Shown one piece after another: positions 27,004 through 46,855 of a stretch of DNA of 50,058 nt (the first letter of the stretch is position 1; each line of letters opens with the position of its first letter). The position numbers and the translations under genes were made by a program. A model generated the notes under the pieces. The model saw only the letters and a program-made list of their open reading frames with translations. It ran no database searches and was not told the DNA's origin. Where the stretch lies: positions 1-50,058 of the forward strand of contig JAUNFK010000004.1 in NCBI GenBank assembly GCA_030525085.1, read 5' to 3'. Origin of the DNA: a bacterium (lineage in GTDB: Bacteria > Bacillota_I > Bacilli_A > RF39 > UBA660).

Positions 27004-27150
27004 CTAGCAACTTGTCTTTGTTTTAATCATTTTAAATGATGTGCCGATAGATTTTCCGATGTTAAAAATTACATTAATTATTCTTGCTAATGAATTTAAA
27101 AATGTTGTTGAAATTCCACCAGCAATCATGTATAATTCATTATCTTTCAT
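27004..27150 (-). CDS. Double-glycine-leader peptide B (48 aa), class IIb bacteriocin-like; missed by the ORF track
   Basis: MKDNELYMIAGG|ISTTFLNSLARIINVIFNIGKSIGTSFKMIKTKTSC*; ATG overlaps the peptide A stop (TAATG). Confidence 0.85.
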   Translation of the reverse strand: MKDNELYMIAGGISTTFLNSLARIINVIFNIGKSIGTSFKMIKTKTSC

Positions 27151-27281
27151 TAGTTACATTTAGGTCTAAGATAACCATCAAGTACTCCAGCTAGAAAAGC
27201 TCCAAGAGCACCAATAATAAGCCCAATAGTCCATTTTATGGCACCACCTGAAATCATACTTAATTCTTCATTGTTTAGCAT
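27150..27281 (-). CDS. Double-glycine-leader peptide A (43 aa), class IIb bacteriocin-like; missed by the ORF track
   Basis: MLNNEELSMISGG|AIKWTIGLIIGALGAFLAGVLDGYLRPKCN*; AAGGAG SD; start overlaps the exporter's last codons. Confidence 0.88.
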   Translation of the reverse strand: MLNNEELSMISGGAIKWTIGLIIGALGAFLAGVLDGYLRPKCN

Positions 27282-29272
27282 AAACCTTTCTCCTTTCTAG
27301 TAGTTAAGAAAAGTATTTTATCAAACTTATAATATTCTTTGTTATGACTAACGATAATTATAGTTTTGTCTTTATAATATTTGCAGATTCTGTGTATTAT
27401 TCTTTTTCTTTCGGCAGGTTCAATTTCTGATAATGCTTCATCTAATAGTAATATATCAAAGTCTTTATATAGTGATCTAGCTAAAATAATTTTTTGAATT
27501 TCACCCCCGCTAAAATTATCTTTGATTAGTGAATTAATTCCATTATATTTAGTTTTATAGATTTTATCTAAGTTTAGAAGTCTTTCTATTGTTTTAAATC
27601 TCTCCTCCTCAATAATATTATCTAAAACAATATTTTCTTTTATAGTTCCAGGAAGGATCTTTTGGCTTTGATTGACATATGATATTTTACTTCTTAATGA
27701 ATCTAAATTAATATCTTTCAAATCCGTTTTATTAATAGTTACTCTTCCATTATAGTCAGTAACTGCTTGAAATAAAATATTTAACAAAGTTGATTTACCA
27801 CTGCCATTTTCTCCTTTTATTAAGATCTTTTCACCTTCGTTTATTTCATAAGAGAAATTATCAAATATTTTATTTAATCCGATTTTATATGTTAGTGCAC
27901 TTATTTTGATGCTTCCATTTCGAAAGTTAAAACTTCTATTTTTTTCTCTTTCTAAATAATAAATACTATTAATTCTTCTGTAGGCACTTCTAAAAAATAA
28001 TATATTGGGCATTATTGTAAGAAAGTAACTTACCGATGATATAAAATAATTATTAATAAAGATAAATGTTAAAATATCACTTGTTTCTTTAGATAAGATG
28101 ATGCTGTAAATAATTATTATAATTAATGCACTTTCATTGTAGGAACTTATAAGTAAATCATTAAAAGCAATTTTTTTATTTAATTTATAATTTAATTTAT
28201 TATTATCTGTAATTATTCCTTTAATCTTTTTTAAATAATATTCTGTTTTATTTATAATTTTGATAGTCCAAGAATTAGATAGAATGCTGATTAAAGTATC
28301 TACTAAATTTGTGTTACTATCTATTGTGATTTCTAAGGTTTGATACAGTTTTTTATTATAAAAGTACACTATGATTGTTATAATTAATGTTATTATAATA
28401 ATCTTTTTAAATATTTCCTTATCAATAATTACTAGAATAGAACTTGTACATATTATTAATATTAAATTAATAATGCCTTCTATTATAGTTATAGTGACAT
28501 TTTCTTTTATCGTGTTTATATCTTCAAACCTGCTTATTAAATCGCCTTCTTTTCTTAACTGCAAATATTTAAAAGGGAGATATAAAACTTGCTTGATGTA
28601 ATCTGAACAAAGGATACTGCCAATATTATTGTTTGCTTTATATATTAATGTATTTTTAAAGTATGTTATTAAACTTTTGCTTAATAATAATATAAATATT
28701 AATATTATTAATTTAGTGTCTTTTTCTGATATGGAATCATTTAAGATAATAGTGTTTAGTAATAAAATTGAACAAATAAATATTGTTAGAATAAGAATCT
28801 TTATAAATAATATTCTATTTTCTTTTAAGGTGTTTTTTAGTAAGTTTAAAAACATTGACTTTGGTTTATAGTTAACAATGTTTTTTATTGGTGTAAGTTT
28901 CAGAATATATCCAGTAAAAACATTATTAAAGTCGGATTTATTTATTTTTCTTTTGCCAATTGCCGGATCCATAATCCAAACGAAGGATTCACTGACATCA
29001 TAAATTACAACAAAGTGTAATAAGTTATTTTGATTTATCTGAGCAATAACTGGTGAGGTATATTTAAATAAATCTTCTTTTTTGCCTATAACTTCAAAAC
29101 CGTATTTTTCGGCAGCTTCTTTTAAATTATAAAAATTAGTTCCGTCCTTAGTTGTTAAGGTGTCTACTTTTACTAACTCCACCGGAATATTTCCATTATA
29201 ATATTTTATTATAGATAGCAAACAACATGCACCGCAGTCCGCTTCGTCTTCTTGCTTTACAACAGTAATCAT
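27275..29272 (-). CDS. Peptidase-containing ABC transporter (C39 + TMD + NBD), double-glycine peptide exporter
   Basis: QEDEADCGACCL (Cys), HFVVIYD (His/Asp), Walker A GENGSGKS, FSGGE, LLLDEA; start ATG 29272. Confidence 0.93.
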   Translation of the reverse strand: MITVVKQEDEADCGACCLLSIIKYYNGNIPVELVKVDTLTTKDGTNFYNLKEAAEKYGFEVIGKKEDLFKYTSPVIAQINQNNLLHFVVIYDVSESFVWIMDPAIGKRKINKSDFNNVFTGYILKLTPIKNIVNYKPKSMFLNLLKNTLKENRILFIKILILTIFICSILLLNTIILNDSISEKDTKLIILIFILLLSKSLITYFKNTLIYKANNNIGSILCSDYIKQVLYLPFKYLQLRKEGDLISRFEDINTIKENVTITIIEGIINLILIICTSSILVIIDKEIFKKIIIITLIITIIVYFYNKKLYQTLEITIDSNTNLVDTLISILSNSWTIKIINKTEYYLKKIKGIITDNNKLNYKLNKKIAFNDLLISSYNESALIIIIIYSIILSKETSDILTFIFINNYFISSVSYFLTIMPNILFFRSAYRRINSIYYLEREKNRSFNFRNGSIKISALTYKIGLNKIFDNFSYEINEGEKILIKGENGSGKSTLLNILFQAVTDYNGRVTINKTDLKDINLDSLRSKISYVNQSQKILPGTIKENIVLDNIIEEERFKTIERLLNLDKIYKTKYNGINSLIKDNFSGGEIQKIILARSLYKDFDILLLDEALSEIEPAERKRIIHRICKYYKDKTIIIVSHNKEYYKFDKILFLTTRKEKGLC

Positions 29273-29276
29273 TTTT

Positions 29277-29325
29277 CCTCCCTTCATTAGTTATTGTTGT
29301 AACTAATTAACTCATTTCCTTTTTT
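29277..29325 (-). repeat. Left copy of a perfect 49-bp inverted repeat (contains the exporter SD)
   Basis: Reverse complement AAAAAAGGAAATGAGTTAATTAGTTACAACAATAACTAATGAAGGGAGG is identical to 30089-30137. Confidence 0.97.
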
Positions 29326-29330
29326 ATTTT

Positions 29331-29363
29331 AAAAAAACTAGTTAATTATTTTAACTAGTTTTT
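29331..29363 (-). terminator. Intrinsic terminator of the cassette membrane-protein gene
   Basis: AAAAACTAGTTAA-5 nt-TTAACTAGTTTTT 13-bp stem overlapping the stop codon. Confidence 0.85.
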
Positions 29364-30035
29364 ATCTTTATTTTTTAGTTTTTTAAGTTTATCTAAGAGT
29401 TTTGTGTTTCTTTTTACTAAGTATGGGTATGCTTCAATTAATCTTGTTTTTATTTTTTGACCTAATGCTTTTTTCTTTTCGTATTCTTCGATTAATTTAT
29501 CTAAATGGCTTGCTACGCTACTTACTTTTAATGCTTCAAAGAAACTGATTAAAAAGTCCGTTAGCATAATAATAAATATTATTATAGAAATCCACATCAC
29601 AGTTGTAGTACTCATAACATGATATAGTTTATTAAATAATGGGTTAAATAGATAAATTATTGCAACCGATCCTACTCCAAATAAAACAGAGTTTTGCAAG
29701 CATACCCTACCGTTTAGATTATACTTCTTTTCTGAATAATCCCACCACCTATTATGAAATACTTTTTCCATTACATAACTTGTTGTATATTCAAGAAGTG
29801 AACATAATACTAATCCAAAAAGGAAGATGATAAATGAATCTTTTTTGATGTGCATGCTGGTTATAGCAAAACTAACTAACATTGCCCCGTTACCATAAAT
29901 AGGAATATATGGGCCGTGCATAAAGCCTCTATTAACCCATTTTTTATCTCCTAAATAGACATAAAATACTTCACATATGTATCCAATAACTGAATAAAAA
30001 ACAAAATATAAAAATATATAAAATAGTTTTTCCAT
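29355..30035 (-). CDS. Putative ABC transporter permease (CmpB/TMEM229-like membrane protein)
   Basis: GYICEV, NRGFMHGPYIPIYG, LEYTTS..MEK.F..RWWDYS, NLNGRVCL motifs; GAGGAG SD. Confidence 0.85.
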   Translation of the reverse strand: MEKLFYIFLYFVFYSVIGYICEVFYVYLGDKKWVNRGFMHGPYIPIYGNGAMLVSFAITSMHIKKDSFIIFLFGLVLCSLLEYTTSYVMEKVFHNRWWDYSEKKYNLNGRVCLQNSVLFGVGSVAIIYLFNPLFNKLYHVMSTTTVMWISIIIFIIMLTDFLISFFEALKVSSVASHLDKLIEEYEKKKALGQKIKTRLIEAYPYLVKRNTKLLDKLKKLKNKDKN

Positions 30036-30055
30036 TACTACTCTCCTCTAAAATA

Positions 30056-30084
30056 ATTTTATCTAATTATTAATTATTTTACAA
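30056..30084 (-). promoter_or_regulatory. Sigma-A-like promoter of the cassette gene
   Basis: Minus strand TTGTAA-17 bp-TAAAAT, lying just inside the right repeat. Confidence 0.6.
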
Positions 30085-30088
30085 GATA

Positions 30089-30137
30089 AAAAAAGGAAAT
30101 GAGTTAATTAGTTACAACAATAACTAATGAAGGGAGG
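30089..30137 (+). repeat. Right copy of the perfect 49-bp inverted repeat
   Basis: AAAAAAGGAAATGAGTTAATTAGTTACAACAATAACTAATGAAGGGAGG; ends in a GGGAGG SD 8 nt before ATG 30146. Confidence 0.97.
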
Positions 30138-30145
30138 TATTTGAT

Positions 30146-30202
30146 ATGTTATTTAGATTTTTATTTAGAGCATTATATTTAACTTTTAGAATGTTTTTAT
30201 AG
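30146..30202 (+). CDS. Putative small hydrophobic peptide (18 aa)
   Basis: MLFRFLFRALYLTFRMFL*; strong SD at optimal spacing; translation unproven. Confidence 0.45.
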   Translation: MLFRFLFRALYLTFRMFL

Positions 30203-30251
30203 AATAATTTATTTATAGTTAAATATAATTTACTAGCGAAAGGAATGGAAT

Positions 30252-30746
30252 ATGATTAATAAACAAAAATTATGGTTCTTAACTTTATTTAGTATTATTT
30301 TGGTACTTAGTGTTTATTATGTATCAATGCCTACGGAAAATTTATCTAATTTAATTAGATCTAATGATACTAGCAGTGATAAAACAACAGTTAAAACAAA
30401 TACTGAAGATAATTTAGCAGCTCTTAGAGTTAGTAATGATGAAGAGGTACTTGCGGAGATGAATAAACTTCAAGAGACTTTACTTGATACAACTGCATCA
30501 TCCGAAGATAAAAATAATGCTTATGAAAAGTTACTTTCTATTAATCTTAATAAAGGAAAAGAAACTTCACTTGAGGAACTTATTTTAAACGAATTTAAGA
30601 TTAAAACTTTTATAAAAATTAATGGAGATAAGATAAGCGTTACAATACCAACCAAAGATGGAAGTTATGAAAAAGCTAATCAGATTATGAGAACTATTCA
30701 GAAAGAATTTGATAAGAAACAGTATATTACCGTAAAATATCAATAG
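30252..30746 (+). CDS. SpoIIIAH-like family protein
   Basis: KQKLWFLTLFSIILVLSVYY N-terminus; helical middle (EKLLSIN..KETSLEELI) and C-terminal beta-alpha-beta. Confidence 0.82.
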   Translation: MINKQKLWFLTLFSIILVLSVYYVSMPTENLSNLIRSNDTSSDKTTVKTNTEDNLAALRVSNDEEVLAEMNKLQETLLDTTASSEDKNNAYEKLLSINLNKGKETSLEELILNEFKIKTFIKINGDKISVTIPTKDGSYEKANQIMRTIQKEFDKKQYITVKYQ

Positions 30747-30754
30747 TCAATATT

Positions 30755-30783
30755 CACTCTCTTTTTATATGTTTCATAAAATA
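30755..30783 (+). promoter_or_regulatory. Candidate sigma-K (mother-cell) promoter of gerE
   Basis: CACT-16 bp-CATAAAATA fits the B. subtilis sigma-K consensus (mACm ... CATA---TA), with one mismatch at -35. Confidence 0.5.
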
Positions 30784-30809
30784 AGGTAGTAGTTGAAAGA
30801 GAGGGAAAT

Positions 30810-31016
30810 ATGTCAAAGAGTATATTAACAGCACGTGAACGAGAAGTTTTTGAACTTTTAGTGTTAAACAAATCGACTAAAGAAATTAGCAGTTATTTAG
30901 GCATCAGTGAAAAAACTGTAAGGAATCATATATCAAATGTTATGCAAAAAATGAATGTTAAGGGCCGTAGTGGTGCAATCGTAGAACTTTTAAAGCTAGG
31001 TGAAATCAATTTATAA
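30810..31016 (+). CDS. gerE: GerE-like stand-alone LuxR-type HTH regulator
   Basis: 68 aa; ILTAREREVFELLV..KSTKEI...LGISEKTVRNHISNVMQK..VKGRS.AIVELLKLGE closely follows B. subtilis GerE. Confidence 0.88.
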   Translation: MSKSILTAREREVFELLVLNKSTKEISSYLGISEKTVRNHISNVMQKMNVKGRSGAIVELLKLGEINL

Positions 31017-31042
31017 AAGTCGTAATTAAACGACTTTTTTTA
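31015..31042 (+). terminator. Intrinsic terminator after gerE
   Basis: AAAAGTCGT-AATTAA-ACGACTTTT plus T-run. Confidence 0.85.
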
Positions 31043-31075
31043 TTTTAATTAGAATATATTTAAATGAGGTGCATT

Positions 31076-32002
31076 ATGCTAATAAGAATGGTTAAGAAAA
31101 GAACATTTTTAATCTTATCTAGTTTATTGATTTTATTAATAGTTTATTTATTTCCGACAAAAAGTGATGATAAAATTGAGGCCAAAATCGAGAATAAAGA
31201 TTTTAGTATAGTTTATTTGTTAAATGAAAATAACTTACTTTCAAGGGTTTCTGTTGTTACAAATAATATAGATATTAATACTAAGGTAAAAGAGATTACT
31301 GATTATTTAACTATTTCGTCAGATAAAAGCGATTATTTACTAGATGGATTTACACCAATTATTCCTAAGGGTACTAAACTTCTTTATTTTAAAATTGATA
31401 ACGATTTGTTGACTTTGAATTTTTCAAAAAGTCTTTTGAATATAAGTGCAGAAAATGAAAAAAGACTAATTAGTGCATTAGTCTATTCTTATACTAGTAT
31501 TAGTGAAATTAAAGCAATTAGTATATATGTTGACGGGAATTTGCTAGAGAAACTTCCCCACTCTAATGAGAAATTACCCCAAATCATTGATAGAAGTTAT
31601 GGGATTAATCAAATTTATAATATAGATGATATTGTCGGGACTACCAAAACTACTATTTATTATCTATCCAAATATAATGATTATTATTACTATGTACCAG
31701 TTACTTTAGTTAATAATGACAAAAGTGATAAGATCAAAATAATATTATCTGAACTAGCTAGTAAAACTGTTTATGAAACAAATTTGATTAGTTATCTAAG
31801 AGATGTTAGACAAATAAATTATGAAATAGAAAATGATTTTATTACCGTTAATATGAGTCAAAAATTATTTAATGATTTGTATGAATCTAATTTAATTGAA
31901 AAAGTTATTTATACGTTAAATTTATCTATTTCTAATAATTATGAACATGCTAAGGTTGTATATTATGTAAATGATAGTATGTATGAAACTTACACCTTTT
32001 AA
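31076..32002 (+). CDS. GerMN-domain spore germination protein (GerM-like)
   Basis: N-terminal TM; IPKGTKLL..KID..LLTLNFSK..E.RLI.ALVYSYTSI.EI..I.IYVDG; INQ...TTIYY...YYVPVT; near gerE as in Bacillus; start likely ATG 31076. Confidence 0.8.
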   Translation: MLIRMVKKRTFLILSSLLILLIVYLFPTKSDDKIEAKIENKDFSIVYLLNENNLLSRVSVVTNNIDINTKVKEITDYLTISSDKSDYLLDGFTPIIPKGTKLLYFKIDNDLLTLNFSKSLLNISAENEKRLISALVYSYTSISEIKAISIYVDGNLLEKLPHSNEKLPQIIDRSYGINQIYNIDDIVGTTKTTIYYLSKYNDYYYYVPVTLVNNDKSDKIKIILSELASKTVYETNLISYLRDVRQINYEIENDFITVNMSQKLFNDLYESNLIEKVIYTLNLSISNNYEHAKVVYYVNDSMYETYTF

Positions 32003-45964: not shown

Positions 45965-46855
45965 CTAGTATTTTCCATGCGGATGTGCATTTAAATATGT
46001 TTTTCTAATGGCCTCATTTGTTAAGTGTGTATAGATGCTTGTTGTGTTTAAATTAGCGTGTCCTAGAAGTTCTTGAACACTTCTAATGTCGCATCCTTCA
46101 TTAAGAAGCATAGTTGCAAATGTGTGCCTAAATGTATGCGGTGTTACACGGGTATTAATTGAGCACTTTTTAATAATTCCATCTATGATATATCTGATGC
46201 CTCGCTCTGTTAGTTTACCGCCATTATTATTTATTAATAAATATTCAGAAAACTTTCCTTTAAGAAGAACTGGTCTGCTGTCTTTAAGGTAGAAGTATAA
46301 TTTTTGTTTTGTAGCTTCTCTATAGTAAACGATTCTTTCTTTATTACCTTTACCTAATATTTTAATTTCGTTGTTTTTTAAATCCATGTCTGATATTTTA
46401 ATACTTGATAGTTCACTAACACGTAAACCTGTTGACAAAAGAAGCTCTATTATAAGTGCGTTACGGAGTGTTAAAGGTTTATCGTCTTCTAATGTTTCTA
46501 GCATTTCTTCAAAATCACTATATTTAAAATAATTAGGCAATTTTTTTTCAGTTTTAAGATTATTAATTAGTTCGAACGGGTTGGTTTCAGTTATGTCTTT
46601 TTTAATTAAATAGTTATAAAAACTTCTTTGTGAGCTTAGTGTACGGTTTATTGATGTACTTTTATAGCCACTTTTTTGCATGTCTATGACATATTCACTG
46701 ACAGCATCATATGATAGTTTTAGGTAATTTAATCTATTTTTAGTACAGTATTCTTTTAGATGATATAAATCTATTTCATAGTTTTTTATTGTTTGTTCTG
46801 AATATCTTTTCTCAAATTCCAAATAGTCTAGGAATTGTCTGATAGTATTTTCCAT
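45965..46855 (-). CDS. xerC: Tyrosine recombinase XerC/CodV type
   Basis: 296 aa; TGLRVSE (R), GKGNK (K), HTFRH (HxxR), VQELLGH (H), TSIYTH (Y); core-binding N-domain. Confidence 0.88.
   Translation of the reverse strand: MENTIRQFLDYLEFEKRYSEQTIKNYEIDLYHLKEYCTKNRLNYLKLSYDAVSEYVIDMQKSGYKSTSINRTLSSQRSFYNYLIKKDITETNPFELINNLKTEKKLPNYFKYSDFEEMLETLEDDKPLTLRNALIIELLLSTGLRVSELSSIKISDMDLKNNEIKILGKGNKERIVYYREATKQKLYFYLKDSRPVLLKGKFSEYLLINNNGGKLTERGIRYIIDGIIKKCSINTRVTPHTFRHTFATMLLNEGCDIRSVQELLGHANLNTTSIYTHLTNEAIRKTYLNAHPHGKY

Follow-up and report, generated by a model that had tools for sequence, protein, structure and literature searches.

The window, by which we mean the whole stretch of 50,058 nucleotides analysed here, belongs to the draft genome of an uncultured gut MAG (942 kb in 32 contigs, about 29.5% GC, 85% complete). 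In it, the gene for a CmpB/TMEM229-like membrane protein lies between two sequences that are exact reverse complements of each other (49/49 nt, with 763 nt between them). On the left are the genes for a bacteriocin-type exporter and two small peptides, and on the right a very short open reading frame is followed by sporulation-type genes. The features are listed below; the promoter and SD roles of the arms are predicted from the recurrence of the module, an orthologous locus without the inverted repeat and the published consensus.

27150-27281 and 27004-27150, minus strand: genes for two small double-glycine-leader, class IIb bacteriocin-like peptides (TIGR03949 for the 43-aa peptide)
27275-29272, minus strand: C39-peptidase ABC exporter, bacteriocin-type, first gene of the left unit (PF03412, PF00664, PF00005)
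29277-29325, minus strand: left arm, putative leftward SigH-type promoter and SD of the exporter/bacteriocin operon
29322-29314, minus strand: putative -35 of the left arm, AAAGGAAAT
29313-29303, minus strand: 11-nt spacer of the left arm
29302-29296, minus strand: -10-like TTACAAC of the left arm
29282-29277, minus strand: putative SD of the left arm, GGGAGG
29326-29363, minus strand: hairpin (29333-29363) and U-run (29326-29332) 3' of CmpB
29355-30035, minus strand: gene for the CmpB/TMEM229-like membrane protein, 226 aa (PF06541, E 7.5e-49)
30056-30084, minus strand: sigma-70-like promoter of CmpB, TTGTAA-17-TAAAAT (consensus match only)
30089-30137, plus strand: right arm, a rightward-facing module identical to the left arm
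30092-30100, plus strand: putative -35 of the right arm
30101-30111, plus strand: 11-nt spacer of the right arm
30112-30118, plus strand: -10-like TTACAAC of the right arm
30132-30137, plus strand: putative SD of the right arm
30146-30202, plus strand: 18-codon ORF MLFRFLFRALYLTFRMFL, predicted to be served by the right arm
30252-32002, plus strand: SpoIIIAH-like, GerE and GerM genes (Pfam matches)

Dinucleotide shuffles gave no match for an inverted repeat of 49 nt. The 49-mer has no third copy in the 942-kb, 32-contig draft, in which only the two arms were found; a shorter module within it recurs four more times. The outer end of each arm is GGGAGG, which lies close to a start codon: 4 nt 5' of the exporter ATG (29272) on the left and 8 nt 5' of the 18-codon ORF on the right. 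Read outward, each arm consists of AAAGGAAAT, 11 nt, TTACAAC and AATAACTAATGAAGGGAGG, and then the start codon follows. The original prediction had described a perfect 49-bp inverted repeat around a single promoter-gene-terminator unit, with the GGGAGG ends as SD sites of both flanks. This description was accurate: the TTGTAA-17-TAAAAT promoter, CmpB and the terminator were all located between the arms as claimed. It had also claimed that the locus lacks a target-site duplication and an internal transposase, and we likewise found no target-site duplication and no recombinase or transposase between the arms.

The promoter match of CmpB sits 4-5 bp inside (that is, inward of) the right arm, in AT-rich DNA where a generic scan for sigma-70 promoters and terminators gave no overall enrichment over shuffles; its TAAAAT box is kept in relatives. 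The hairpin behind CmpB has 13 pairs and a folding energy of -11.2 kcal/mol (z = -4.4; 0 of 200 shuffles were as good), and it is retained in relatives with a changed stem sequence. Together with the U-run it is likely to form an intrinsic, bidirectional terminator that would insulate CmpB from the exporter promoter. Judged by these elements, CmpB is an independent unit lying between two predicted promoters. A search of 28900-30600 against Rfam at a permissive threshold returned chance-level matches only, and no exact copy of the CmpB protein is on record in public assemblies.

The best NCBIfam matches of the exporter are peptide cleavage/export ABC transporters. Both double-glycine peptides are conserved 3' of the exporter in relatives, and the 43-aa peptide scores 30.4 bits against TIGR03949, for which the cut-off is 21.5. 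CmpB, the C39 ABC exporter and the two double-glycine peptides follow each other in this order at 37 genome loci from several genera. Because the cluster is conserved to this extent, CmpB (PF06541) is a good candidate for an immunity or accessory protein of the bacteriocin system.

On the other side of CmpB, an ORF of 18-19 codons rich in Arg, Leu and Phe occupies the same place in 11 of 11 genomes, with diverged nucleotides. It reads MLFRFLFRALYLTFRMFL in the window, MFFRILRRMLFHIFTFMI and MIYLRILLKTISKILLYFI are examples from elsewhere, and it has a SigH-type promoter in all 11 genomes. The 18-aa product could be a genuine micropeptide, acting on membranes or in signalling. About 25 nt 5' of the spoIIIAH-like start there is a further box (..GAATA-N16-ATATAAT.. 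/ TAATATAATTTA; window 30205-30251), whose ATATAAT is conserved in all relatives, including the genera without the inverted repeat. This box is probably a promoter of its own, of the sporulation-sigma type. Hence spoIIIAH, gerE and gerM would at most be read-through targets of the right arm.

The right intergenic region differs somewhat between genomes. In five of them (G023, G016, G001, G019 and G014; right intergenic regions L005-L009), an AGAGG in the right arm is followed by a complementary CCTCT and forms a hairpin with it, and compensatory changes are seen (TAGAGA/TCTCTA, TAGAGG/CCTCTA, AGAGGTA/TACCTCT). The same five genomes have a separate SD for the small ORF, AAAGGAGG, after the hairpin. 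In the clade of the window this piece is lost and the arm's own SD would serve the small ORF.

A module shared with other genes

The published SigH consensus is (A/G)(A/C)AGG(A/G)(A/T)(A/T)(A/T)-N11-12-(A/G)(A/G)(A/C)GAA(A/T), and in Listeria AAAGGA(A/T)TT boxes lie 5' of comGA, comEA and coiA (PMC4754846). In both arms, AAAGGAAAT is an exact fit to the 9-mer of the -35 consensus. The distance between -35 and -10 is 11 nt in both arms as well as in every other copy of the module, in this genome and in relatives. For the -10 box, TTACAAC agrees with the consensus RRMGAAW at 3 of 7 positions, and its core is CAAC, not GAAT. Genera without the inverted repeat have AAAGGAAAT-N14-GAAT in the spacer between CmpB and the exporter, with GAAT at the spacing seen in the arms, followed by GAGGGAG and ATG; the fuller form of this putative exporter promoter is AAAAAGGAAAT-N14-GAAT(A).

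The module is not restricted to the two arms. The pattern AAGGAAA[TA]-N11-TTACAA[CT] occurs six times in the draft genome, against 0.1 occurrences expected by chance, and four of these six exact copies lie elsewhere. A seventh, weaker copy was found by a position-weight scan. All stand 46-54 nt 5' of a start codon or of a short upstream ORF. The copies outside the arms are found at the following places.

5' of comEA (SLBB+HHH_3), followed by comEC (PF03772)
5' of a gene for a 406-aa secreted protein; STAS/SpoIIAA-like and SigF-like genes come next
5' of a 146-aa gene; behind it stands a RadC-like gene (so named after its N-terminal sequence)
5' of an MvaI/BcnI-type nuclease gene, frameshifted in the draft genome
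Weaker copy: 5' of a 172-aa gene, upstream of a putative ligA (N-terminal sequence)

Judged by N-terminal sequences, SpoVA-like genes come after the SigF-like gene. Between the module and the 146-aa gene (C10, 44348-44450, plus strand), a 7-codon ORF, MIRHFSK, comes first, and similar short ORFs are found in G021 and G018 (MFRHFF.., MIRQ..). The nuclease gene, which has the same SigH-type promoter (C4 of the draft, about 15440-14700, minus strand), is split in two in the window's genome (127 and 118 aa) and intact, with 248 aa, in G021 (L138).

In relatives, exact copies are more numerous still: 12 in G021, 9 in G018 and 7 in G016, compared with 0-2 in the reversed control, and the genes downstream are orthologous. 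Among these targets, comEA-comEC and the spoIIAA/sigF-like operon recur in all three genomes.

Is there a sigma factor that could read such promoters? The sigma factors found in the draft genome are SigE (beside spoIIGA), a probable SigG, SigK and the SigF-like protein. A sigH gene was not found in the draft, and rlmB is missing as well. The absence of sigH is uninformative, because the 85%-complete draft also lacks rpoD, secE and nusG, and none of these absences should be taken as real. Each relative encodes one protein of 197-200 aa that matches SigH models over the full length, with scores below the NCBIfam equivalog cut-offs. In G009 the best NCBIfam matches of this sigma factor are all SigH models, and its gene lies between rlmB and secE-nusG, which is the classical position of sigH. 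A SigH orthologue was found in 5 of the 5 closest relatives.

Orientation and origin of the repeat

The close relatives are deposited as "uncultured Bacilli/Tenericutes" (UMGS1021, UMGS1372 and Hadza MAGs), and Mycoplasma sp. CAG:956 is among the more distant ones. Ten other species of the genus share the arrangement in which exporter and CmpB point left and spoIIIAH, gerE and gerM point right. Only some members of the genus have a recognisable repeat around CmpB: the arms are 77-88% complementary in eight species, more weakly so in two, and other genera have no repeat. At about 27 loci of those other genera, CmpB lies directly upstream of the C39 ABC exporter, often with the two peptides downstream. 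Since CmpB occupies the same position beside the exporter where there is no repeat, it was not inserted as a cassette. From this distribution we conclude that the repeat arose around a CmpB that was already present. The left copy is the ancestral one, as the exporter has AAAGGAAAT-N14-GAAT before it in genera without the repeat.

Not all parts of the arms behave alike. In every species of the genus the arms consist of AAAGGAAAT, exactly 11 variable nucleotides and a conserved block that extends to the SD. From the -10 to the SD, the two arms of a genome are identical at 21-26 of 26 positions in 9 of 11 species, and between species about 15 of 26 positions agree. The comEA promoter matches the arms of its own genome over this block at 26 of 26 positions in G016 and at 19-22 of 26 in four others. 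By this comparison about 38 of the 49 arm positions are fixed by the regulon consensus, so that most of the identity between the arms is regulon-wide. The 11-nt spacer is what is left. It is identical between the arms at 11 of 11 positions in the window, at 9 of 11 in G019, at 8 of 11 in G016 and at 6 of 11 in both G021 and G022, against a background of about 3.5 of 11; all five differences between the spacers in G021 are transitions. These values point to episodic gene conversion or re-duplication between the arms, most recently in the lineage of the window, and such a recent event would be needed for the identical spacer only.

The spacers show further similarities. Most 11-nt spacers of the module end in TTC. 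At unlinked loci of G021 they hardly differ (two loci have TAGGGATGTTC, a third has CTGGGATGTTC), and one arm of G022 has a near-identical spacer, CGGGGATGTTC. The module may spread by copying, or there may be some other constraint on the spacer. In addition, the conservation from the -10 to the SD is rigid at unlinked loci. Both the rigid block and the similar spacers go beyond what a sigma factor alone should impose, and a second regulator, or spread by copying, may be involved.

The original prediction offered two explanations for the layout. According to one of them, the segment is an invertible cassette that redirects read-through or upstream promoter context between the peptide-export operon and the sporulation-gene cluster. 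Recombination between the arms would then flip CmpB and switch transcription, in a phase-variable manner, from one flank to the other. Inverted copies as perfect as these 49-bp arms are what one would look for in such a system, and tyrosine and serine recombinases are encoded elsewhere in the genome. None of them is close: the nearest tyrosine recombinase lies at 45965-46855, and the sole PF00589/PF00239 match in the window (46016-46519) is 16 kb away. The orientation of CmpB is the same in all 10 syntenic species, at about 27 loci of other genera and in 9 of the 10 metagenome contigs with the conserved block. In six metagenome contigs of the G021 type, the arms differ at the same five positions, and each variant stays on its side. 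The exception is L122 (OLWU01003610.1), which at 406-1085 has an inverted-type junction and joins the 5' end of the exporter, via an arm, to the promoter and 5' end of CmpB. This 680-nt piece (27% GC) sits between unrelated pieces of 52% and 57% GC, and the switch point falls into 27 nt that the two arms have in common, where an assembler could wrongly pass from one to the other. We treat L122 as an assembly chimera, a real rare allele being less likely. A search of the metagenome contigs for a junction-spanning pattern gave no match. Even if inversion took place it would have little effect, because the internal promoter points at its own gene, with a terminator behind it, and the outward promoters predicted in the arms would remain unchanged. 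Nor do the closest relatives keep the 11-6-11 palindrome that lies within the arm. All in all, we regard an invertible cassette as highly improbable.

The other explanation was that both flanks are co-regulated by a module that was recently duplicated or homogenised. The shared module stands, and it can now be given a putative name, a SigH-type promoter with its SD, which also heads comEA-comEC and the spoIIAA/sigF-like operon. The homogenising has to be narrowed down to the 11-nt spacer, the rest being regulon consensus. The accompanying remark that no system of this kind is known cannot be upheld, as the locus would consist of two promoters of one regulon that point apart, with an independent gene in the middle.

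Two proposed divergent promoters and the alternatives

We propose that each arm is an outward-facing SigH-type promoter together with an SD, and that the inverted repeat is a by-product of placing two promoters of one rigid regulon back to back. We assign this reading a probability of roughly 0.8. It draws on the sequence and spacing of the arms, their regulon membership, their conservation and fixed orientation, and the SigH orthologues of relatives. Each arm would comprise, in this order, an A-tract, the -35 AAAGGAAAT, the 11-nt spacer, the -10-like TTACAAC, a leader of about 15-19 nt and GGGAGG. Transcripts would start about 6-9 nt 3' of TTACAAC. When SigH is active (in the transition state, competence or early sporulation), both arms would be expected to fire outward. 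Leftward firing would then express the C39 ABC exporter and the two double-glycine peptides, and rightward firing the gene of the 18-aa peptide, possibly on into spoIIIAH, gerE and gerM. Elsewhere in the genome the DNA-uptake genes and the spoIIA-type operon would be co-induced.

One could also argue that the module is not, or not only, a SigH promoter, and that it serves as an operator or leader for a dedicated DNA- or RNA-binding regulator. This would account for the conservation of about 20 nt past the -10 box to the SD, for a block that is near-invariant among unlinked members of one genome and different between species, for the preference of the spacer for a ..TTC end and for a -10 box that departs from GAAT. 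The geometry of a 9-mer, 11 nt and a 7-mer with an exact -35 match fits SigH, however, and the genera without the inverted repeat have the canonical GAAT. Moreover, comEA-comEC and a spoIIA-type operon belong to the classic targets of SigH, the locus has no linked regulator gene, and there is no Rfam match, so that we think a dedicated regulator unlikely. Perfect complementarity might instead suggest that the arms pair in one long RNA, or that they are the ends of a mobile, TIR-bounded (MITE- or MIC-like) cassette that brought CmpB in. Against both stands the position of the CmpB promoter, just inward of the right arm. For RNA pairing, no promoter is placed such that both arms are transcribed on one strand. 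For a mobile cassette, there is no target-site duplication, the 49-mer exists in two copies only, and CmpB is found at the same site beside the exporter in genera that lack the repeat. We find these two ideas barely credible. A somewhat less remote idea, which we still consider rather unlikely, is that the arms continue to recombine. Gene conversion would be accompanied by an occasional crossover that flips CmpB, L122 would be a minority allele, and, more broadly, the cassette would homogenise across the SigH regulon. If this were true, the members of a promoter family would be evolving in concert within a reduced gut genome.

Several more specific candidates were considered and dropped. No transcript can hold both arms of a long-range RNA stem. 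Neither a CsrA-type pair of GGA sites nor a short upstream ORF inside the arm is conserved in relatives. An operator of the LytTR type would consist of direct repeats, which are absent, as is a linked kinase or regulator. A hairpin between the leader TTACAACAA and the first codons of the exporter is present in some relatives and missing in G019. The Xer/dif-like 11-6-11 core depends on the 11-nt spacer of the window's genome, and the arms of G018, G021 and G022 do not have it. The mobile TIR-bounded cassette is contradicted by synteny.

What does this mean for the biology of the lineage? On the proposed reading, a false lead is removed: what looked like a new kind of invertible cassette would be ordinary co-regulation. 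At the same time, a SigH-type regulon emerges for an uncultured gut lineage whose genome measures about 1.1 Mb. One rigid promoter cassette would couple DNA-uptake genes, a spoIIA-type entry into sporulation, the exporter of a two-peptide bacteriocin and a conserved 18-aa peptide. The sequence of the module can also be used to predict the regulon in relatives; this is useful annotation rather than a new principle.

Comparison with known systems

The locus resembles the invertons (fimS, hin, cwpV/flgB of C. difficile and the capsule promoters of Bacteroides) in that a short, promoter-bearing segment is bounded by inverted repeats. Unlike at those loci, no second orientation is seen in relatives and no recombinase is found in the neighbourhood. 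Furthermore, the internal promoter would serve an internal gene that is terminated within the segment, and the repeats themselves can be explained as promoters.

A closer likeness is to the SigH promoters of competence and early sporulation genes in Bacillota, of which spoIIA of B. subtilis, with its SigH-dependent promoter, is an example. The -35 match is exact, the spacer has 11 nt, the module of the arms also precedes comEA-comEC and a spoIIAA/sigF-type operon, and relatives have a SigH orthologue at the rlmB/secE-nusG locus. The module differs from these promoters in the -10 core, which is CAAC or TAAT in the window's genus and not GAAT, and in forming a rigid block, about 50 nt long, that reaches as far as the SD. 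It is also peculiar to this locus that two copies stand back to back around an unrelated gene and in this way make a perfect inverted repeat. SigH systems are also available for comparison from S. aureus (PMC3486894) and L. sakei (PMC3364868).

Finally, the predicted regulon is reminiscent of the com-box regulon of ComX in streptococci, where a sigma factor of the SigH family likewise controls DNA-uptake genes together with a two-peptide bacteriocin. The streptococcal ComX (SigX) com-box promoters include that of cibABC, a two-peptide bacteriocin induced in competence. In our lineage the sequence of the box is different, the organism also carries sporulation genes, and neither ComCDE nor ComRS is present at the locus. 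By analogy, the pairing of competence genes with a bacteriocin suggests a fratricide-like coupling, similar to the competence-linked fratricide of streptococci.
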